The notes: generated from the letters alone by a model not told the origin. 33,767 bases of DNA from Candidatus Hadarchaeota archaeon (GCA_964621445.1 CAZUNO010000027.1:1-33767); one strand, 5' to 3'. Shown: positions 21,878 through 32,039, numbered from the stretch's first letter. Numbers and translations are program-made.

Positions 21878-22561
21878 ATAGCAGGAGGTCCCTTACTACT
21901 TATAAATCCAGCCATTACGATGGTCCAAAAATAAATAATAAGACCAACACATTGGTTCAATCTAAGAGAAGAAAGCTTGATCGCCTCGAATTTGCCATAG
22001 AAGAGGGAAGATGACCATTCAAGGCCGCAGTCAGCATCCGAAATCTTCCAATCCACGGTTTCAGGTGTTCAGGGTAACGGCAAACGTATCGATGGAGGGC
22101 GGGAACCCTTCACTCCAACTATCTCTATAGGTTATCAGAGATCCCCGGCCCCGTATATATCAGAATAACTCAGGCCCCGATTACCGGGAATTCCCTCTCG
22201 GGACTTCTCTGATACAGTACTCTGAGCATTTCGAAAGAATATCAATGGGTATTGTCAGAAAACTATGTTCGGCTTAATTTTCGATCTGTGAAAGTCGGAG
22301 GAATCCCAGAGGCGGCGGAAAAATACGGGATCTAGGGGGTCCTCATCCACTATACGAACCTTAGACCTCCACGACAAGAAACATAGTCAAGAGTGACGTA
22401 AGATGAGCTAAAGACTTACTTTACCGATGACAGCTCGTAGTCTATCTCTTAGAGAAGTAGAAGAAAAAAAACTCCCCATTGTAGAACCCGCCGTGTCCAA
22501 CCGGTTCTGATAGTCATGGCCGGCTCTTATCAAATGACGGATAAGTATTCGGGTTTATCCT

Positions 22562-22594
22562 AAAAAAAAGATGGCCGAGGTTCCGGCCCTCGGC
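22562..22594 (-). terminator. Hairpin + oligo-T terminator of the PadR operon
   Basis: GCCGAGG-7nt-CCTCGGC stem followed by T8 on the minus strand. Confidence 0.5.
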
Positions 22595-22616
22595 AAGCCT
22601 GATATTATAGGAGCGC

Positions 22617-22862
22617 TTATTCGCTGATTTCCTCAAGGCGTTTCTCTATTTGCTCAAGACGCTTGGCAAGCATCTCCTTGTGTCTCTTTAGAGTCTCTGA
22701 CTCCTCCTCCAAAGTCATTTCCCCAGGGGAACACCCCATCGAGGGATGGCCCATATAGGTGTGGCCCATCACAGGTCCACAGCACCTGGCGTGGGCGTGA
22801 TGCCCGTGCATTCCACAGTCGGTTCTCATTTTCCTTATCACCTCCTCTTCTTTTTTTGCCAT
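22617..22862 (-). CDS. Small His/Cys-rich coiled-coil protein (DUF5320-like)
   Basis: CGMHGHHAHARCCG followed by an EEE...LK..KE.L..RL..IEKRL coiled coil. Confidence 0.75.
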   Translation of the reverse strand: MAKKEEEVIRKMRTDCGMHGHHAHARCCGPVMGHTYMGHPSMGCSPGEMTLEEESETLKRHKEMLAKRLEQIEKRLEEISE

Positions 22863-22883
22863 GCCCTGGTCACAACTATCAAA

Positions 22884-23309
22884 TTAATCGGCAAAATGCT
22901 TATCGTAAAAGGCGGACAGGTCGTCCAGAAGGGCCTTTCGCCAGATCATTATCTCCAGGCCGTACTTGAGGGATTCTTTCCCCCTCTCAGTAACACTGTA
23001 AGTCCTCCTGTCGTGTCCCGACTCTGTTCTCTCCCACTCTGATTTTACCAGCCTCTTGGCCTCCATTCTCCTCAGAATGGTGTATATTGCCCCGGGTTTT
23101 AGACGATCCTCCACAATAAAGTCGCGTTTCTCAAGTTCCTCCTTGAGCTGGTATCCATGCATAGGCTTCTCGTAAAGCAAGCGCAGGAAAAGAAACTGCA
23201 TCCAGCCCCTCTCAGGAAACCCGGGACCGTGATGATCCGGAGGGCAACCGGGATGTTCATGGGAGGCACACTTACAGGGGAGTTCGGGTCCAGAGTCACA
23301 TCCGCGCAT
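22884..23309 (-). CDS. PadR-family transcriptional regulator with Cys/His-rich N-terminus
   Basis: LLYEKPMHGYQL, PGAIYTILRRME, RRTYSVTERG. Confidence 0.9.
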   Translation of the reverse strand: MRGCDSGPELPCKCASHEHPGCPPDHHGPGFPERGWMQFLFLRLLYEKPMHGYQLKEELEKRDFIVEDRLKPGAIYTILRRMEAKRLVKSEWERTESGHDRRTYSVTERGKESLKYGLEIMIWRKALLDDLSAFYDKHFAD

Positions 23310-23330
23310 TCCGCTATCACAGAATAAAGG

Positions 23331-23356
23331 TAACAACGTTATGCATAAATATGTTA
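23331..23356. promoter_or_regulatory. Interrupted palindrome TAACA-acg-TTATGCATAA-ata-TGTTA over the PadR promoter
   Basis: Read directly; ~22-47 bp upstream of the ATG at 23309. Confidence 0.55.
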
Positions 23357-23689
23357 CTTTAAGTGTCTCCCTGGACCGGAAGTAGTCAAGATTACCTGCC
23401 TTCTCCTCCAGGCACTATTTGCCGGATGCCAGACCATACAATGGTCCGCGCAGGCCTATTTGGAGGAGATGCAGTTCAACAGCACGATTATGCGGGAACT
23501 CCTGAGGACAGCGCCCTTGGTCCCGTAGAGAAAAACTCCCGAGCGGGGTCCCATGACCACAACGGAATCGACGCTTCTTCTTCAGATCAAACGGCGTCGA
23601 GATCTGTCCTATGGAACTTGTCATCCCCCGGGCTTAAGACCTTCGGCCATTTAGGCGAGCGCTTTCGACCCCAGGTCCCCGTTTCCGGA

Positions 23690-23885
23690 TTTGACTCCAT
23701 TTTCCCTAATCTCGTGAAGAAGATCCAATCCACCTCCGGGCTGACTCGACAGCCTCCCTACCATCTTCTCGAACGCCTTGAACTTTTGTCTCTGGAGATG
23801 ACGGTGTCCCTGCATGTTCCAAGTCTCCTCGATTCCATGTATTCCCTATAAAGTTTCGCGTCGTCATCATCGCTAAGAAAATATC
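23690..23885 (-). pseudogene. C-terminal remnant of a DUF3368 PIN paralog of 9569-10099
   Basis: FLSDDDDAKLY...ISRDK..AFEKMV..CRVSPEVDWIFFTRL. Confidence 0.65.
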
Positions 23886-23919
23886 CTGGCTTAATGGGGA
23901 GCCCGCCGGGGGAGGAACT

Positions 23920-24290
23920 TGATCTTTCGTCCCTTTTGGATAGATAGGTGGGTATGTCTTGCTTGGTGTTTGGGGAGAATGGTCCGATCCTTCTCGCGTT
24001 CTCCCGATTTGACGAGGATGAGCTTGGACTCGCTGGCGAGATCTTAGATCCTGCGGTTGAGGGCCTCTGATATCCGCATTCCGGTTCCGTAGGGCAGGCC
24101 GAAGAGGATTGTTCCCTGGGGGTTGGTTCCGGACTACCCGAGAAGAGCGTCAATCCCTTCCCGGGTGAGGTAGATCGGCAGCTTCTTTGGTCTCCTGGGA
24201 AGCGGTATCGCCTCCGCCGGTCGGGGTCGATATTGCCTGTCTCCAGGAGGACGCGGTAGAGGGCCTTGGTATGCGCAACAAAACGGAGGC
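23920..24290 (-). pseudogene. Core fragment of an XerC/D(XerA)-like tyrosine recombinase
   Basis: KALYRVLLETGNI / PRRPKKLPIYLTREGIDALLG*...LPYGTGMRISEALNRRI*DLASESKLILVKSGEREKDRTILP. Confidence 0.8.
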
Positions 24291-24299
24291 CTGAATTAC

Positions 24300-24755
24300 G
24301 CCCGGACAATCGCCTTCACCGTTATGGCGGCATTCCAGTGGTTCCAGGCTTTAAATGCCCGATCCAACTACCAGTCGATCTTCTCGATCGGCGTGTTCAG
24401 TAACAGATACCTCCTTCTGGGTGTGGGAGCTGCGATCCTCCTCCAACTGGGAGCTGTGTACACCGCCGTTGGTCAGATGGTGTTCGGAACCCCGGGGATC
24501 TCCTGGGCGGACTGGCTCTGGATAGCGATGGTATCGAGCACGATCTGGGTGGCTGACGAGATGCTAAAGCGGCTAGAAGTATATGGCAACCCACATTCAA
24601 TTCAGGACGATTCAAAGAGAGGATGGAGTGATTCTCCTTACATCGTCGGCCGGGGAGATGAATGTAATTTGCCTTGCTTAAGATGCGGGATCTCGAGAAA
24701 CGATATGGTTCAAACTGCTATTTCTTTTCTGGGCAATGGACGGTCAAAGACATAA
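24300..24755 (+). pseudogene. C-terminal fragment of a P-type (Ca2+-type) cation ATPase
   Basis: ARTIAFTVMAAFQWFQALNARS...FSNRYL...DW...ADEMLK = Cation_ATPase_C; the N-terminal domains are absent. Confidence 0.8.
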
Positions 24756-25104
24756 CCTTGGGAGGCACCGCTCAAATGAGGTAACCATACTTAGGGGTTG
24801 CAGCCATCTTGGGGATATGACAGGCCTCAACATAGAATTAGTTCTCTGACTAGTTCTGCTTACTTATGGGGTTATCGGGGGAAAAACAAGAATTAGTAGA
24901 CTTTCTTGGACATGTAAATTGCGGGACAAAAAAGAGGTAAACAGACGGTCAGCTCGCACGGATCCTGCCGTAGGTCTATGTATGACCAACCTTGTTAACC
25001 GGCATGACGAAGGAGCAAACTGATGAATCTAACCCGATTCCTTCCCCTTCCCGGGCACATCCACGGACGATAAGGCCATACAGGCTGCGGACAGGTCGTG
25101 TCCA

Positions 25105-25947
25105 TCACCTATACCTCTCGTTTAGCCCGATCATGTTTGTCCTACCCATCCTGTGCTTGCTGACGATTCCTCTCGAGTTCAGTCCCTTAACTATCCTTGA
25201 CATGGTCGCATCCGAGAAATCTCCAATATCTCTGATCTCCGCCTGGGTCATATCCCCTCTATCGCGCAGGATCTCCACCACCCTTCTCTCATCCTCGCTC
25301 AGGACCTCCATCAACTCCTCCCTGCTTGGACCCCCCTTCCTCCAACGTCTGACCGCTAGGAAAACAAGGAAGCCCACAAGGAGAAAGAACAGACCCAGCG
25401 CAGAATAGAGATGAACCTCGTCCCAGCCCTTCGCCATGCCTACGGGGGATACGAGAGCGAGATCAACCCTGATCCCTGGCTGTGAAAGATTCACGCTTAC
25501 CGAACCGGTCCCCATAAACCTACCGTCGTTGGCATTGATCCGTAACAGATCCCCCTCTCCATACCCGCTGGAAAGCATGGAGAGGTCGACGATGTACTGA
25601 CCCTGCTCATTGGTATAGGTCGTCAACCACTCCCCAGTCCCCTCATTAATCACCGTCACAGAGACGCCGGAGCCCACATGGTTCCCCTCGCGGTCGCTAA
25701 CATAACCATAGATTGCAAAAGGATCCAGGATACGAGCTTGACCCAGACAAGGTAAACAAAGGAAAATAACCGCCAGAATGCAACATATCCTGCAAACCCC
25801 CTGGCCGATACTTGACACCTTTATTAGAGAGGGAGGGCGTGAAAACCAGCCAGGCCACGTCAAACCAGGTCCACCAAAATCGGAACCGAAAAACAAACTA
25901 GGATCGCCACCTTTCATAAGTCGACCCAGCAAAGAAAAATACGACAA
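25105..25947 (-). CDS. Single-pass membrane regulator: signal peptide + carboxypeptidase-regulatory-like ectodomain + TM + C-terminal winged HTH (COG2512-like); true start probably ~25818
   Basis: PFAIYGYV..TNEQGQY..GYGEGD ectodomain, TM LGLFFLLVGFLVFLAV-RRWRK, LSEDERRVVEIL..GDMTQAEI....SDATMSRIV..L..RGIV.K.RMGRTN. Confidence 0.85.
   Translation of the reverse strand: MSYFSLLGRLMKGGDPSLFFGSDFGGPGLTWPGWFSRPPSLIKVSSIGQGVCRICCILAVIFLCLPCLGQARILDPFAIYGYVSDREGNHVGSGVSVTVINEGTGEWLTTYTNEQGQYIVDLSMLSSGYGEGDLLRINANDGRFMGTGSVSVNLSQPGIRVDLALVSPVGMAKGWDEVHLYSALGLFFLLVGFLVFLAVRRWRKGGPSREELMEVLSEDERRVVEILRDRGDMTQAEIRDIGDFSDATMSRIVKGLNSRGIVSKHRMGRTNMIGLNERYR
25460..25671. repeat. 212-bp identical direct repeat, copy 1 (ectodomain)
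   Basis: Base-for-base identical to 27196-27407. Confidence 0.95.
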
Positions 25948-26383
25948 TCAAACCCGCCAAAAGTAGGGAGGGTGGGTTTCCAACCGTCATCTCCTTGTAC
26001 ACATCTATCATGATCCCGGGCTGCGATAGATCAACAACCCCTTCAGCCGAGCCATAGCCGGAGGGGTTTTGGGCCTCCACGAGTATGCGGTCGCCCTCCG
26101 AGTACCCGGTCGGAAGGGCTGAGATGTCGAAAACATACTTGCCCTCTTGATTAGTCCAGCCGCTCAGCTGTTCGACTGTGTCAAGGTTAGTGACTTCCAC
26201 CGCTACCCCCTCCCCAACTAGTTCATCCCAAGGATCGTACACCGACCCATAAACGGAGTAAGGATCCCTGGGCACGCTCGGAACATCCCGCATGGCAGTA
26301 TAACCCAACACCAGAAGAGTTGCAAAGAAAACCACTCCAAGCAACCCCCGTTCCAAACCAGTGCTCGAATTAAATTTCTTCAT
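25898..26383 (-). CDS. Membrane protein: N-terminal TM/signal + same ectodomain family + C-terminal TM, no cytoplasmic domain
   Basis: PYSVYGSV..VGEGVAVEVTN..TNQEGKY..GYSEGD..DLSQPGI; GGAGG/GAAGGTGG upstream of the ATG at 26383. Confidence 0.85.
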   Translation of the reverse strand: MKKFNSSTGLERGLLGVVFFATLLVLGYTAMRDVPSVPRDPYSVYGSVYDPWDELVGEGVAVEVTNLDTVEQLSGWTNQEGKYVFDISALPTGYSEGDRILVEAQNPSGYGSAEGVVDLSQPGIMIDVYKEMTVGNPPSLLLAGLIVVFFFAGSTYERWRS

Positions 26384-26420
26384 CAATGCCCACCTTCCGA
26401 CCTCCATCCATTCTCCAAAT

Positions 26421-27554
26421 TTACTCACCGCCCCTGTCGGGATGGTGCCTCCCTGATTCACCCCGCCAATCAGTATTGTTCATTTTCTGGAACCGCCGGG
26501 GCGACCTCGGGTGTTCTCCCTCCCCAAACTCGATCAATCGATCAAATAATCCCATCATCTCCGGGGAAAGCTTCTCAAATCTGACATTCGCCTCAACGAG
26601 CCACAGCGTCGTTATACCTTCTCGCCCAATCCTCTGCAGGCCCTGCGAAACGAGGTCCTTGATGTCAGAAGATGATTTGGCTTCTGCAAACACCGACAGA
26701 ACGTCAACAACTATGGTACGCGGCTGCCTCAGTATGGCCCTAGAGATGGCAATATTAATGCGGCGGCTTTCGGGCTCTGTCTCTATCAGGGTGAAGTCTT
26801 CTTTACCTTCAAAGCTTTTCCATCCCGATCCGTTGAAGCAGATCATAATCACCCTCTTGTCGAGAATCCCCCACCGGCGCATAAGGCTCACCAAGGATGG
26901 GATCTTGTTACATTTGGAAAGACCGGTTACGAGAAGCGAGGCACCCTCGAAAGTCTCCAACCTTCCACCCTCTGCTTCGCCCTCTCTGTGGTGGTGACCT
27001 TTCGGAACTCTTGCTGGCTTCCTCTCCGAGCGACCGTTCCGTTCCCCGGCATCGGGCTTTCGCTCCGCCGCCATCCTTCTCCTGAGAAACCCATAAGCGG
27101 TCCAAGCGACAAACAACGACGAGACCACCCCAATCGCGATTAGACCAAGGTACTGACTCCGCTTGTCTGCTAAGGGTAGTGGTGATAGAAGGGCAAGATC
27201 AACCCTGATCCCTGGCTGTGAAAGATTCACGCTTACCGAACCGGTCCCCATAAACCTACCGTCGTTGGCATTGATCCGTAACAGATCCCCCTCTCCATAC
27301 CCGCTGGAAAGCATGGAGAGGTCGACGATGTACTGACCCTGCTCATTGGTATAGGTCGTCAACCACTCCCCAGTCCCCTCATTAATCACCGTCACAGAGA
27401 CGCCGGAACCCACGGGGCGCTCCTCATCGCTCGTAACTAAACCATACACCGCATAGGGGTCTGGAATACCCAGCGTTGGACCTTGGGAAGCCAAAGCTAT
27501 CATGGACAGGGCCGCAAGACACAGCTGACGGATATTCTTCCAGCATGCAATCAT
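26421..27554 (-). CDS. Single-pass membrane protein: signal + same ectodomain + TM + degenerate KaiC/RAD55-like (RecA fold) domain
   Basis: GASLLVTGLSKCNK (decayed P-loop), IVVDVLS (Walker B-like), GITTLWLVE, FDRLIEF. Confidence 0.75.
   Translation of the reverse strand: MIACWKNIRQLCLAALSMIALASQGPTLGIPDPYAVYGLVTSDEERPVGSGVSVTVINEGTGEWLTTYTNEQGQYIVDLSMLSSGYGEGDLLRINANDGRFMGTGSVSVNLSQPGIRVDLALLSPLPLADKRSQYLGLIAIGVVSSLFVAWTAYGFLRRRMAAERKPDAGERNGRSERKPARVPKGHHHREGEAEGGRLETFEGASLLVTGLSKCNKIPSLVSLMRRWGILDKRVIMICFNGSGWKSFEGKEDFTLIETEPESRRINIAISRAILRQPRTIVVDVLSVFAEAKSSSDIKDLVSQGLQRIGREGITTLWLVEANVRFEKLSPEMMGLFDRLIEFGEGEHPRSPRRFQKMNNTDWRGESGRHHPDRGGE
27196..27407. repeat. 212-bp identical direct repeat, copy 2
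   Basis: Identical to 25460-25671. Confidence 0.95.
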
Positions 27555-27907
27555 GCTCCGTCGCCCCCAATTGGTTGACCCCTGATCAAACAAAACGAGA
27601 GGTCTGGAATGAAGCAGTGATCGGAGTCGACTGAAGGGTAATATTTCGAACATTAAAATTTTTTGCAAAATATAGAAATTATTGTTCCTTACTCCGCAGC
27701 CAGCTGCGCAGTTTTTGGTAAGCAGTGCATCTTTATTGTCGATATTTTTGCCTCCTGTTCAAAGCTATACTAATCTGGAACATCACCAACACGCAAGCCT
27801 CTCAACATATTCCCATCTGTGTTCCTCTAGATGACATGCACGAAGAGCTTGTTTTTTCAAAAAGGAGAGAGGATGTCCAGAAAGAAACATCCTCCCCGGA
27901 ACCGTGC

Positions 27908-29935
27908 CTAGAGTTTCCTTTCAACCGCCCAGGTTGTGTTTCTAGAAACCCAGACGTAGTAGCCCTCCGAAGGCTGGATGAAGAATTCACTGGATGTGAA
28001 GCCCTCTATGTAGAACTCGAAAGAGCCATCGGGTCTCCTCCTGGCAATCTGCACTATCTCTGTCTCATTCGAGAGGTTGGAAAAGGTCTCTGAGATGTTC
28101 CCTGCGGAGAAAGAGGGCTTCCCAACTAGGTTCCACCTCCCGGCATCCAACTCGGTCAAGACGGACGTGTTGTATTCCACAATCCCACTCAACGTCACGT
28201 TCACTTCGCTTTCCAGCCAGACATAGTAAGCCTCATCCCGAACTATGTCAAAGTCCCCACCGAAGCCCACTCCGCTTCCGGGATCTACCACGTAGTGTTC
28301 ATAGAGCGATCCGTCTCCAGATCTTCTCGCAACGCTCGTCGCTGCCTCACCGATCTGCTCCAAAAGAGAACTAGCCGTGAAACCGACTTCGTAGGGAAAT
28401 GATACGATATTCCATCCCCGATCCAGATGCTTGTCGAATATCCCAGCGACCTGAAAGTTCTGGATTATCTCTCCGTCGGCGCCCATCTCTCTCACAACGT
28501 AGTATCTTGCATCGGTTGCAGATGTGTCCTTCCAGACCTGAGTGGAATTGCCCACTTGGTCGTTGGGAGCAGAGAAGTCAAATCCTTCAATCGAGTCCGC
28601 TGCATATATGGCGTAGCCAGCCGCTTCGTCGGAGGCAACCCAGCTCAGAACCGTTTCCGCGCCCTCTCTATAGGCCAGCCTGCTTCCTCTTCCGAACAAC
28701 AAGCCCTTCATGTTCTTTAACTTCTCGAGGTCAACGGGCAGATCCGTCGGCGGTCCCTCCATATCAGCTGCATTCTCGACATCTCTCAACTCGCCCTTAA
28801 GTAGGGATTCCACGGTTACGGGGAACACTTCCCACTGAACGGGAGCCATCTCCTCTCCCCCCAGGTAGTCCCTGTAGTAGACATCGTTGTACTCATACCA
28901 CCTCTCCGACTCGGGATAGGACGAGGCAGCAAAAAAGCCGAAATCCAACGCCTCCCTCTCGTTAACTGCTCCGTCCTTGATGTATCCACCGGACGTAGGG
29001 TCCAGAGCCAACCAGCCGTCATCGGTCAGCACCTCGACCCAGGCATGGCCCCCCTCAATTCCCTGGAAGCTAACCAGGCCCAAAACCACTCTCACAACCT
29101 CTGGTCCAAGGCCAGCCGCACGAAGCATGGATACAAGGGTATTGGCCTGCTCCTCGCAGTCCGATTTGATCCAACCCGTCACCGGTGGCATGTCGGGCGT
29201 CTGGACCAGACACTCGCCGGAGGTCAGCCATCGTTCCTCCACGCCGAAGAGCTCCATGTCCGATATCCAGAGCATTCGGGTGGTGACCCAGTCGTATACC
29301 GCCTCAGCGGTCCTGTCCAGATGGTTGACCGCGTCCAATATGGCCTCATCCTGCGGTGTAATATAGTCGGAGAAGGAACCAACGTCCTCCTTCCCGGATC
29401 GTCTAGCCTGCTCTTCTACCTGCTCGCGGTTCACATCGTCGACCAAATCTCCGTATCCCATCGTTTCGAGTATCTCGTCCCTTTTCTCCCTGAACCCATC
29501 CTTCAGATAGGAGGCAAATATGCCCAGCCCCTTGCCATCCGTCATCATCACAACGAAGGGCAGGGTCCGCAACCTTCCTATGTCGGTCGCATTCGCCCTG
29601 ACATAGTACAAATTGTCAACAAAACTGGAACGTTCCAGAACCTCGCAGTACTCGCCCAGCTGCCCGCTGGAGCCCTCCTCCACAAGGACAAGCAAAACCC
29701 GTTCAATGCTGTTGGGACCAGGTTCAAGTGGGACCGGAATCTTCTCGGGGGGGCCAGGGCGCATAGATAGAGTTAGGTTTCCCACTTCATCGCTGACGTT
29801 CTGTGCATGGGAGGTTGAACCATTCGAGGGACTCAAACGCCCCGGGACCTGCCCCCCTTTTCCCTTGGCACCTAACACCAGAACCGATCCAATCATCAAC
29901 ACAACTACGGACAACGCCGCCAGATTTCTCTTCAT
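27908..29935 (-). CDS. Secreted transglutaminase-like (Cys-His-Asp) protein with FN3-like domain and two C-terminal GWN/WNL repeats
   Basis: AAGGAGGG RBS; signal MKRNLAALSVVVLMIG; SDCEEQANTLVSMLRAAG, GHAWVEV, WLALDPT; LSW...GYAIY...YYVVR; GWNIVSFP/RWNLVGKP...YYVW. Confidence 0.88.
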   Translation of the reverse strand: MKRNLAALSVVVLMIGSVLVLGAKGKGGQVPGRLSPSNGSTSHAQNVSDEVGNLTLSMRPGPPEKIPVPLEPGPNSIERVLLVLVEEGSSGQLGEYCEVLERSSFVDNLYYVRANATDIGRLRTLPFVVMMTDGKGLGIFASYLKDGFREKRDEILETMGYGDLVDDVNREQVEEQARRSGKEDVGSFSDYITPQDEAILDAVNHLDRTAEAVYDWVTTRMLWISDMELFGVEERWLTSGECLVQTPDMPPVTGWIKSDCEEQANTLVSMLRAAGLGPEVVRVVLGLVSFQGIEGGHAWVEVLTDDGWLALDPTSGGYIKDGAVNEREALDFGFFAASSYPESERWYEYNDVYYRDYLGGEEMAPVQWEVFPVTVESLLKGELRDVENAADMEGPPTDLPVDLEKLKNMKGLLFGRGSRLAYREGAETVLSWVASDEAAGYAIYAADSIEGFDFSAPNDQVGNSTQVWKDTSATDARYYVVREMGADGEIIQNFQVAGIFDKHLDRGWNIVSFPYEVGFTASSLLEQIGEAATSVARRSGDGSLYEHYVVDPGSGVGFGGDFDIVRDEAYYVWLESEVNVTLSGIVEYNTSVLTELDAGRWNLVGKPSFSAGNISETFSNLSNETEIVQIARRRPDGSFEFYIEGFTSSEFFIQPSEGYYVWVSRNTTWAVERKL

Positions 29936-30007
29936 CAAAACCCTCCTTCTTTCCGTTTTTTTTCCAAAAAGGCTGTTGAAAGCCTGATACCTCCTATGCA
30001 GCACGTA

Positions 30008-30024
30008 TATTTAAAGTTTACCAT
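30008..30024 (-). promoter_or_regulatory. Archaeal BRE + TATA promoter for the transglutaminase cluster
   Basis: Minus strand reads ATGGTAAAC-TTTAAATA about 75 bp upstream of the ATG. Confidence 0.55.
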
Positions 30025-31085
30025 TTTCAAGCTTTCAGAGAACTCCTTTCGCGTTTTAGCGACGTCTCCACACGTTTCCATATTGTTCCATTCCTTTCCT
30101 GGTCTTTCCACTTTCTTCCAAGGCCTCGAGAAACGCGCCATCGGCCTACGAGACCTGCATGTCAAATCAACGTTACCATGTTCAATTACAAGCCGTGCCT
30201 GAAAGGCGGGGATCATCGACAGGACAAGAACAAGTTAACCTTAAAGGAAAGGGTGGACGCCACGCCCAACCGCCGCACGGGGGATCCTCATCTCATCGCC
30301 TTCCATCTCTCCACCCGTAGCTCGCCATAGTCGAACCAGATCCCCTCCCAGCTCCAAAATGATCATCTGCCCAACCGCAGGCCGGGCCGAGAAGGCCTGG
30401 CACTCCCCACTTGGATCCATTATCTTCTTTGCTGAGACCTCTCCGGACTCTAGAATACCTCCACGTTGTAAGGATTTATGTTGACCACCGCTTCTCCGGA
30501 GGGCGGAGGAGGCCGAGTAATGACATCGAAGCCAACGACCCAGCTGAGCATGTCCCTGTTCATCGGATGGGTGTCCCTACTAGTCAAGACGTTGGGCAGA
30601 TTGAAAGCAAAGACGGTATTATCCCTGGCCTGGGCCTCAAAGACGATTTCCTTGCCCCGAACCCTCTTGCCGTAGAACGACAACATGAAGACGTTGGTCT
30701 GGGCAAATATGTGGATACCGATGAAATCCTTCGGCGCAAGGGCTCTCTGAGTAAAGGCCAAAGGGATAATCGTATTTGCAGTCGTCGATCGCCAAGAAAG
30801 GCCGGGCGATGACAGAAGATGTTGAGAATCTTATCATGGGTGGGAATATACATCTGGGTCCGGGGCAGGGGCGATGGCTCCCTCAGCGGTTAAATTCACC
30901 TGCCCGGGGCCAAGTACTCGCCTTGAAATCCGATGCCAATTGGAAAGCTCTCTATAGGAAATTAAAAATTAAAATACATTCAAAAATAGCGACAGAGATC
31001 GACGCTCCAATTGTAATGGGAAAAAAATCTCCAAGCCCGGAATCCGGACGGGCTAATCAGAGTCTCCTTTCAGCGGGGATATTGA

Positions 31086-31388
31086 TTACCCTCTCATTGT
31101 TTTCGCTATCTGTAATCCTAGGATTTTTGCTCCCTTTTCGGTTTTCATGGACAACGTGGCGGGCTCTGTAACCAAGCATTCTTGTTCTTCGAGTATTTCC
31201 TCTTTTCCATCGACGGTAACTCTTACCTCGCCCTTGATCACGTAGAAGAGGACATATGAATCCATATCACAGGGAGGTATTTTACCATCGCTCGGCAGAG
31301 TGATGAGTCTGGAGTTGAACTCGTCGGCTTCGTAGAAGACGGTCGCCCTTTCCTCCGGTTCCATTTCTTTGAGATCGAAAATTTGCAT
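31086..31388 (-). CDS. Cupin-domain protein
   Basis: GGAGGTGA RBS; IPPCDMDSYVLFYVIKGEVRVTVDG cupin motif. Confidence 0.85.
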   Translation of the reverse strand: MQIFDLKEMEPEERATVFYEADEFNSRLITLPSDGKIPPCDMDSYVLFYVIKGEVRVTVDGKEEILEEQECLVTEPATLSMKTEKGAKILGLQIAKTMRG

Positions 31389-31499
31389 CTTTTCACCTCC
31401 TTTTTTCACCTTTGAAAGATACTCTTTTTTCATGCTGTTAGGTCCTCGTATTTTTTCACTGGTGATTGTATCAAACCCATGAGTGTTTCTCCGGGAGAT

Positions 31500-32039
31500 T
31501 TATTCGCTCCTGATTGTTTTAATTACGCCCTGAACTATCATGGATATAAATATAAATGCTAATATCACGCCGATCGAGCCCAGTAGAGAGGAGAGATCTC
31601 CTGTTGGTCTTGGCTCAACATAAAGATTCTTTCCAACACCGATCTCTTCGATAAGCACCCCTTTGTATTTTAGGACGACGTTTATCCGGTGCGTTCCTTC
31701 TTCGGCTTCCCAGGAGATTTTGTATGTGCTTGATCCTCCTGAACCTACCTTTATTCCGTTTATATTTCCTATTTTGATATTATCGACTAAATAAACTATA
31801 CCCAGGTTATCAATTGGGTCTGACCCATCGTTGTATATCGTCGCGCTAATCGAAATATTGTCTCCCGCTTCGGGATTATTATCCGAGAACTGGATTCCGC
31901 CAATCTCTATTTGTCGGGGCGAGGTTTCGCCACCGTTTTCCTGTCCTCTCGCAGGTATAAGGGAGAATAGTCCGAGGATCAAAACTAGGGTCAAGATTGC
32001 ACATCCTTTCTGAATCCCGGGCGTATCTACGCTCGTCAT
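31500..32039 (-). CDS. CARDB/Ig-like domain membrane-anchored protein
   Basis: Signal peptide, FSDNNPEAGDNISISATIYNDG...SWEAEEGTHRINV, C-terminal TM. Confidence 0.82.
   Translation of the reverse strand: MTSVDTPGIQKGCAILTLVLILGLFSLIPARGQENGGETSPRQIEIGGIQFSDNNPEAGDNISISATIYNDGSDPIDNLGIVYLVDNIKIGNINGIKVGSGGSSTYKISWEAEEGTHRINVVLKYKGVLIEEIGVGKNLYVEPRPTGDLSSLLGSIGVILAFIFISMIVQGVIKTIRSE

Follow-up and report, generated by a model that had tools for sequence, protein, structure and literature searches.

In this work we have examined a cluster of four genes in a 33,767-nt stretch of DNA from a Candidatus Hadarchaeota archaeon (GCA_964621445.1, CAZUNO010000027.1:1-33767), which we call the window; the genome that carries it is referred to as G000. 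The genes, here named TG, K, S and H, are arranged head to tail on the minus strand and as open reading frames (ORFs) they span positions 25105-30004. TG (27908-29935) encodes a transglutaminase-like protein of 675 aa, secreted or anchored at its N-terminus, as judged from Pfam and from its orthologue in G003, a genome of another genus of the same family whose other orthologues are termed K3, S3 and H3. K (26421-27554, 377 aa) consists of a signal peptide, an ectodomain (27165-27479), a transmembrane (TM) segment (~27063-27161), a basic linker, a domain of predicted KaiC/RecA fold (~26448-26972) and a C-terminal tail. S (25898-26407, 169 aa) has an N-terminal hydrophobic segment, a divergent ectodomain, a TM and a 7-residue tail, and H (25105-25917, 270 aa; gene-caller product P0001) has a hydrophobic segment, an ectodomain (25432-25743), a TM, a tether of ~10 residues and a winged helix-turn-helix (wHTH) domain of the DUF7343 type (25123-25299). 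Our starting point was a reading of the sequence by a model, the original prediction, which had proposed that these four co-oriented genes form a new envelope-signalling system. The four ORFs do lie on the minus strand where it had placed them, and all four of its domain assignments hold (Pfam, profile-profile comparison, predicted structure). Its gene extents are correct as ORF coordinates; for K, S and H the longest-ORF starts are probably not the true ones, the ATGs at 27554, 26407 and 25917 being the likely start codons. The longest ORF of TG is 27908-30004 and its likely true start, the ATG at 29935 (MKRNLAAL), is conserved with G003.

The spacing of the genes bears on whether they act as one unit. 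K and S are separated by 13 nt and S overlaps H by 20 nt, and in G003 the corresponding junctions are a gap of 3 nt and an overlap. This operon-like packing points to K, S and H being translated from one operon with coupled expression. TG looks like a transcription unit of its own, with a conserved hairpin and U-run after its stop codon. Of the proposed grouping, the order TG-K-S-H is kept in G003, whereas TG is set off from K by 353 nt containing that terminator-like hairpin.

K, S and H follow a common plan, each with an N-terminal hydrophobic segment, an ectodomain of ~100 aa, a TM helix and then an Arg/Lys-rich sequence. An alignment of the six ectodomains, three each from G000 and G003, spans ~103 columns, 25 of them invariant; the identities are 83% for K and H, 39% for K and S and 38% for H and S. 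We modelled K with AlphaFold2 (AF2) on an alignment of 27 rows, and in the model (mean pLDDT, the predicted local distance difference test score, 79) the ectodomain has seven strands (pLDDT 83-95) and is followed by a long TM helix and, after a basic linker that is disordered, by an alpha/beta domain predicted with confidence. Alignment and model thus agree on the beta-sandwich ectodomain that had been proposed for the three membrane proteins. The one structural match listed for it is the beta-sandwich domain of the S-layer stalk protein SlaB (8qox_B; Z 11.1, root-mean-square deviation 2.1 Å over 86 residues), in a list otherwise filled by the C-terminal domain of K, so that the ectodomain part was barely tested. 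The CarboxypepD_reg domain (PF13620) scores 20.5-24.7 bits in K, S and H against a cut-off of 32.3, over the first half of the profile (positions 1-43 of 82); since these scores lie below the cut-off we regard it as a resemblance and not as membership, while the beta-sandwich fold is supported by the model. The ectodomain, which superposes on the SlaB domain, differs from both families in being a single domain with no coiled coil, in its Pfam scores and in a sequence identity of only 19%. S, tailless as proposed, ends just past its TM, and the ectodomain of S3 is 63% identical to its own. The N-terminal hydrophobic segment of S (window 26290-26407; 920-1033 on the G003 contig, L023) is unusually conserved with the orthologue (RGL.GVV..A.LL..GY.A.R), which hints at a retained helix, either a second TM or a pilin-type class III signal, in place of a cleaved Sec signal; the class III idea came from a reading by eye and was dropped.

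The cytoplasmic end of H belongs to a widespread family. DUF7343 (PF24034) matches H at aa 217-275 with an E-value of 2.5e-15 and 56.5 bits, well above the cut-off of 27.6 (59.8 bits in the genome scan), behind hydrophobic segments at about aa 50-70 and 180-200. The winged HTH end assigned to H is therefore upheld. The family has matches in 108 of 151 archaeal genomes. Among the best 30 DUF7343 loci of other archaea at least one predicted TM precedes the wHTH in all 30 and an N-terminal hydrophobic segment is present as well in 23, by a crude Kyte-Doolittle scan. H thus resembles the rest of the family both in its domain and in the usual architecture of hydrophobic segment, ectodomain, TM and C-terminal wHTH. 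G000 itself encodes two more DUF7343 proteins of the same architecture whose ectodomains are unrelated. What sets H apart is that its ectodomain is shared by two adjacent paralogues with other tails and homogenised with one of them. Our literature search found no paper naming DUF7343 and no experimental study of the family.

The tail of K was harder to place, because no direct Pfam match was obtained at E-values up to 5. When the K/K3 pair was compared by hhalign with nine Pfam-verified KaiC-like domains, the match had a probability of 98% and an E-value of 1.9e-13 over 138 columns. The K/K3 profile retrieved nine proteins at E up to 1e-3 from 1.84 billion protein representatives; eight of these match KaiC, DUF7504 or GvpD at E up to 0.01, two of the nine above the curated cut-off, and the nearest (P0002, E 1.6e-14) passes the cut-offs of both KaiC and DUF7504. 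Visual inspection shows an ectodomain and a single TM ahead of the domain in four of the nine, and several TMs in two. When K, K3 and the nine relatives were combined into one profile of eleven sequences, it found matches in 135 of 401 archaeal genomes (E up to 1e-5), for the most part in ORFs of ~210-260 aa, and each of the nine genome matches that we tested was a Pfam KaiC. The structural comparisons of the modelled tail, which adopts a RecA-type alpha/beta fold with pLDDT 86-97 over residues 200-345, gave KaiC CI as the first Foldseek hit (E 7e-8) and RadA, KaiC and FlaH with Z 14.6, 14.5 and 14.2 in VIA-align. AF2 folding of the tail from the two-sequence alignment reached a pLDDT of 38, and the ESM Atlas led to KaiC/DUF7504 clusters with scores all below 0.9. 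Word-indexed protein searches with K, the iKaiC alignment and the tail of H returned the window's own product or three already known proteins only.

Is this domain still an ATPase? The P-loop reads GLSKCNKI in K and GYPKCGKP in K3, compared with GxPGTGKT in the family (Walker A, GxxxxGK[ST]). The catalytic Glu pair has been lost, with CFNGS at the SxEE position in K, and the Walker B Asp is kept (VVVDVL). With a degenerate Walker A and without the catalytic glutamates, the tail of K appears to be an inactivated KaiC-like (iKaiC) domain, and the degenerate KaiC/RecA-like domain suggested by the original prediction is supported by profile, model and motif alike. K resembles other iKaiC and KaiC-like proteins in its predicted RecA/KaiC fold, its degenerate P-loop and lost glutamates and its signalling-type context; it is unlike them in being anchored in the membrane behind an ectodomain and in having no direct Pfam match to the KaiC clan. 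Makarova, Galperin and Koonin (mBio, 2017) reportedly described KaiC-like proteins as archaeal signalling hubs and may already list membrane-anchored forms. We did find genomic relatives outside the lineage that combine a signal, an ectodomain and a TM with the same iKaiC domain. The term iKaiC appears in passages of PMC5847659.

Two further observations concern this type of tail. A short motif after the KaiC-like domain, SP..F..M..TDW.GE.GR, is common to K (26424-26520) and K3 (L023, 1040-1140); the rest of this end is disordered, and the motif may act as a docking peptide. In another archaeal genome, G121, two loci (L110, contig C2, 5679-7876, and L112, contig C1, 4133-7779) encode membrane-anchored proteins with the same iKaiC domain, one with four TMs and the other with a signal and an ectodomain of ~720 aa. 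Each is directly followed by a gene for a canonical single-domain KaiC ATPase (Pfam E 6e-56 and 3e-61), whereas K is neighboured by its ectodomain paralogues; a third membrane form in G121 (L111) has no canonical KaiC neighbour.

A further feature of the cluster is the relationship between the ectodomains of K and H. A block of 212 nt is 100% identical in the two genes (27196-27407 in K, 25460-25671 in H, minus strand) between diverged flanks, which marks it as a gene-conversion tract. Could this be an assembly artefact? In the sequencing run X1 the block is a separate 212-nt unitig with a depth of 8.87, compared with 3.7-6.1 in the flanks, as expected for a true exact repeat in two copies, and in two runs independent contigs show it as a unitig of twofold depth; unitigs are silent on which flanks belong together, and it is the synteny with G003 that supports the assembled arrangement. 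At third codon positions the paralogues K and H are 80% identical and K3 and H3 are 65% identical, with an identical block of 51 nt in G003, whereas the orthologues reach 46% (K and K3) and 47% (H and H3). K and H are thus closer to each other than to their orthologues in both genomes, which indicates concerted evolution with homogenised ectodomains. The ectodomain of S has stayed orthologous and distant, and the flanks and tails of K and H have diverged. We take it that gene conversion keeps the ectodomains of K and H matched. The two outputs would then respond to one external cue, or use one and the same surface for pairing, and the matched sequences fit a shared ligand or a mutual contact. 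It is rare for sequence data to argue in this way that two distinct outputs are bound to respond to a single input.

TG begins with a hydrophobic signal or anchor (MKRNLAALSVVVLMIGSVLVLGA), followed by an N-domain with no family assignment. Its Transglut_core domain (PF01841, aa 280-336, nt 28997-29167) has an E-value of 6e-9 and 36.6 bits against a cut-off of 23 (39.7 bits for the isolated segment). The predicted catalytic triad, in canonical Cys-His-Asp order, comprises C283 (SDCEEQ), H321 (GGHAWVE) and D336 (LDPT) in ORF numbering, and it is kept in the homologues from G003 (68% identity over aa 4-698) and from the genome G009 (39% identity). The protein thus conforms to the secreted Cys-His-Asp transglutaminase-like enzyme that had been proposed. 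Behind the core, aa 433-518 gave weak Ig-VH-like matches in a sequence search of solved structures, suggesting an Ig/FN3-like segment, and the C-terminal part is made of two tandem repeats of ~90 aa (GWN.V...YYVW; 34% identity, E 1e-6). The ESM Atlas offered only an fn3 lead for the C-terminus (score below 0.9), and Pfam gave no match for the isolated N-domain, FN3-like segment or repeats. An Inhibitor_I9-like propeptide was considered for TG and dropped, as it found no support in the Pfam scan of segments.

The original prediction had likened TG and K to LapG and LapD of Pseudomonas, and there is a similarity in that a transglutaminase-fold Cys-His-Asp enzyme outside the cell stands beside a receptor with a dead cytoplasmic domain. 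However, TG misses the 27-bit threshold of the BTLCP/LapG family (PF06035, Peptidase_C93), scoring 14.2 bits over its full length and at best 18.9 bits in the core segment, it has FN3-like and repeat domains that LapG lacks, and no HAMP, GGDEF, EAL or LapA-like substrate was detected in Pfam scans of K, S, H and their neighbours. Nothing in K is LapD-like, and we retain the comparison as a loose analogy only.

Could the cluster instead serve to build the cell envelope? K, S and H would then be stalk-like anchors which TG matures, trims or cross-links, to each other or to the S-layer, and their tails would merely tether cytoplasmic partners. The resemblance of the ectodomain to the SlaB stalk speaks for such a structural role. 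So do its relatives: the ectodomain profile matched 12 of 401 archaeal genomes, and in the ten that do not belong to the family only part of the profile is matched, within ORFs for surface proteins of 496-3336 aa. Scans of genome and metagenome contig collections with the ectodomain returned the G003 contig and weak partial CarboxypepD_reg-like matches only. In G019 (L114, contig C12, 1588-5845) a surface protein of 925 aa with the C-terminal repeat type of TG is directly followed by a secreted protein of 496 aa with an ectodomain-like module (E 4.4e-11). This second, distant pairing of the two domain types favours the structural role and may just reflect both being surface modules. Finally, a surface protein with CarboxypepD_reg repeats and DUF4129 and a DUF4350 protein lie just upstream of the cluster in G003. 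Yet the ectodomains are single and small and the model contains no coiled-coil stalk, and no Gln or Lys is invariant among the six aligned ectodomains, so that cross-linking through isopeptide bonds at a fixed ectodomain residue finds no support in the sequences. In addition, a wHTH domain so close to the membrane (~10 residues) and an iKaiC domain are what one expects of signalling or regulatory proteins, not of anchors. We regard a structural module as unlikely, although this and mere neighbourhood of the genes are the chief rival readings.

A candidate operator, at 30061-30120 on the minus strand, lies ~50-110 nt upstream of the TATA box of TG and comprises six 10-nt units of the form [T/A]GGA[A/G]N5 (TGGAAgaaag, TGGAAagacc, AGGAAaggaa, TGGAAcaata, TGGAAacgtg and TGGAGacgtc), with five exact GGAA cores and an exact spacing of 10 nt. 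It is the sole cluster of at least three phased GGAA in the window (expected 0.16; 0 of 100 shuffles reach three), and in a scan of all 4-mers it was the sole chain of at least four copies at period 10 (0 of 200 Markov simulations reach five). Four of the units can be aligned in G003. In a related strain represented in run X4, the six displayed substitutions within the array all fall outside the GGA cores; 2 of the 25 differences of that piece are undisplayed, which is a weak point. Between the array and the gene lies a TATA-like box (tttaaatata, 30006-30015, minus strand), ~75 nt upstream of the ATG at 29935, within a block (CTTTAATATC) that is conserved with G003 in an otherwise poorly alignable spacer and whose promoter function is inferred. 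A GGAGG Shine-Dalgarno-like motif at 29942-29946 precedes the ATG and is also conserved with G003.

The terminator-like hairpin at 27859-27897 on the minus strand (GGAGGAUGU...ACAUCCUC followed by a U-run) stands directly after the TG stop codon. It is kept in G003 with a different loop, and folding yields -18.3 kcal/mol for G000 and -23.8 kcal/mol for G003 (z -2.45 and z -5.64, respectively). The X4 strain has two small insertions, at 27876 and 27885, inside the span of the hairpin, the loop of which is 27879-27884. Upstream of K we read a TATA-like box at 27666-27677 on the minus strand (tttctatatttt, preceded by AGGAACAATA), for which the evidence is weak because it is not conserved in G003. 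Copies of GGAACA near the K promoter were considered as a second operator and dropped, as their number did not rise above a rough chance estimate. Rfam gave nothing within 22500-31500 at E up to 0.1.

How widely is the cluster distributed? It recurs as a whole on a 9-kb contig of G003, with identities of 68% for TG, 50% for K and 63% for the ectodomain of S, and it was found nowhere else in 401 archaeal genomes, in genome and metagenome contig collections or among the 1.84 billion protein representatives. Of the five genomes of the phylum in our set, two have the ectodomain. Run X4, from a second microbial-mat study, contains pieces of all four genes and of the upstream spacer from a related strain at ~90-96% identity, one of which bridges K and S. 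The original prediction had called for a neighbourhood search for transglutaminase, KaiC-like and wHTH receptor genes in other archaea; this gave one further genus, in which the tail of H3 is missing from the assembly, and no wider co-occurrence. Its judgement that the combination is not recognised as described still stands, since we found none beyond G003 and none in the portions of the literature covered by our searches on membrane-bound archaeal wHTH proteins and transmembrane iKaiC. The parts, a tethered wHTH of the DUF7343 family and a membrane-anchored iKaiC domain, are of known kinds; their combination is new.

So narrow a distribution suits another explanation, namely that the genes merely lie side by side: K, S and H would have arisen from a gene for a receptor of the DUF7343 type by tandem duplication, with gain or loss of tails, and would act independently, and TG would be a secreted enzyme unrelated to them, the block having been inherited or transferred together. 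With two genomes of one family, the gene order may reflect shared descent or a single transfer. The hairpin between TG and K is also in keeping with independence, as are the relative of the TG core in G009, which has no K, S or H neighbours, and the position of the locus beside a toxin-antitoxin-rich, gene-poor and decaying region. However, gene conversion has in both genomes been restricted to the ectodomains of K and H, with divergence of the flanks and tails, and this argues for selection to keep sensing matched; the overlapping or nearly abutting frames in both genomes argue for coupled expression. Moreover, the four genes have stayed together while their flanks differ: in G000 these are a cupin, a CARDB protein and an ABC-2 transporter, and in G003 (L023, contig C129, 5106-8992) a divergent stand-alone response regulator, DUF4350 and a membrane protein with CarboxypepD_reg/Big_3_5 repeats ending in DUF4129. 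Domains of the DUF4350, DUF4129 and CarboxypepD_reg type often accompany transglutaminase genes. On balance, mere neighbourhood seems to us improbable.

The wider surroundings raise the possibility of a defence function, in which the membrane proteins would sense virus attachment and the wHTH, the ATPase-like domain and a protease-fold effector would respond. The first 22 kb of the window are densely filled with toxin-antitoxin and candidate defence genes, and the cluster is accessory: positions 1-22000 hold four AbiEii/AbiEi pairs, three PIN genes, an ATPase_2+DUF234 gene and a DUF3368 gene, and an AAA_14+DUF4143 gene there matches the PADLOC candidate PDC-S01 (E 5e-55). On the other hand, no PADLOC model matches TG, K or S, and H is hit through generic wHTH models only, at E 1e-4 or weaker; the candidate effector is extracellular, and no nuclease, NADase or pore-former is present. 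An anti-virus or conflict system is, in our view, very improbable. The cluster itself sits in decaying or non-coding DNA. No gene or Rfam match was recognisable at 23337-25104 (~1.7 kb) and 30005-31085 (~1.1 kb), Pfam found nothing in ORFs of the flanking gene-poor DNA, and no flanking direct or inverted repeats mark a mobile element. On the plus strand, 24324-24755 encodes a stand-alone piece from the C-terminus of a P-type cation ATPase (Cation_ATPase_C, E 1.9e-20).

Among known regulators, H is closest in logic to one-component systems such as ToxR, TcpP and CadC (with ToxS and TcpH) and ArnR/ArnR1, in which one TM joins an outside sensor to a DNA-binding winged helix held at the membrane. 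The targets of ToxR are direct repeats, and it is assisted by a small co-receptor. By analogy, the tailless S and the phased GGAA array would fit a picture of the ToxR type. Unlike in ToxR and CadC, the order in H is reversed, with the wHTH at the C-terminus, the domain is MarR/ArsR-like and not OmpR-like, the host is an archaeon and there is an additional pseudo-ATPase paralogue. H lacks the defining features of the ToxR/CadC family, and the comparison is a mechanistic one with no homology claimed. Membrane-bound transcription factors are not foreign to archaea, ArnR and ArnR1 of Sulfolobus being cited as such in passages of PMC13286277. Those passages also give the proposal that the KaiC-like protein CirA tunes a transcription factor in Haloferax, and treat CsmR.

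Taken together, the four-gene cluster looks like an undescribed variant of membrane-anchored gene regulation. The best explanation that we can offer, to which we give somewhat less than an even chance, is a lineage-restricted envelope-sensing module assembled from two known archaeal part types. One ectodomain-TM unit would have been triplicated by duplication and given a wHTH output in H, a pseudo-KaiC output in K and no output in S, and the three proteins would form mixed membrane assemblies. The iKaiC domain, which probably still binds nucleotide but no longer hydrolyses it, or else serves as a docking site for an active KaiC-like ATPase, would modulate the DNA binding of H. H in turn would act on the 10-nt-phased GGAA array, making TG the regulated output, and TG possibly remodels the envelope and so feeds back on the ectodomains. 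A mixed-output receptor complex of an as yet undescribed kind, in which one sensor domain is present on three membrane proteins and is held identical on two of them by continuing gene conversion, the tethered transcription factor and the pseudo-KaiC protein co-assemble, the tailless S sets their stoichiometry and one cue is passed to TG through the GGAA operator, is an attractive idea that we would nevertheless call rather doubtful.

Several findings weigh against an envelope-sensing module. H3 is cut by the end of the G003 contig inside the TM, before its tail, and the missing tail is not on any other contig of that genome (the best match is 35% identical); with this tail unassembled, a single genome documents the wHTH output. 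The fold match of the K tail is not independent of the hhalign result, because the alignment used for folding held canonical KaiC-like rows. TG is cut off from K, S and H by the conserved terminator-like hairpin, so that the link between them could be one of synteny only, and the promoter region of K is not conserved between G000 and G003. The GGAA array is no more than a candidate operator for H, and no comparable array was seen at the two other DUF7343 loci of G000. Lastly, the cluster is absent from G001, which belongs to the same genus as G003, and from G002, and it is thus accessory.

Why should such a locus be of interest? Transmembrane signalling in archaea is poorly understood, DUF7343 is widespread yet unstudied, and few mechanisms have been worked out for the KaiC-like hubs. 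The cluster described here puts a DUF7343 domain and an iKaiC domain on one shared sensor domain, beside a plausible target gene with a candidate operator. An envelope-sensing module of this kind predicts that H binds the GGAA array, that K and H associate with each other and that the tail of K binds nucleotide without hydrolysis. If the mixed-output complex were true, it would provide a first mechanistic handle on two things at once, the large DUF7343 family and the inactivated KaiC domains that archaea carry at the membrane.

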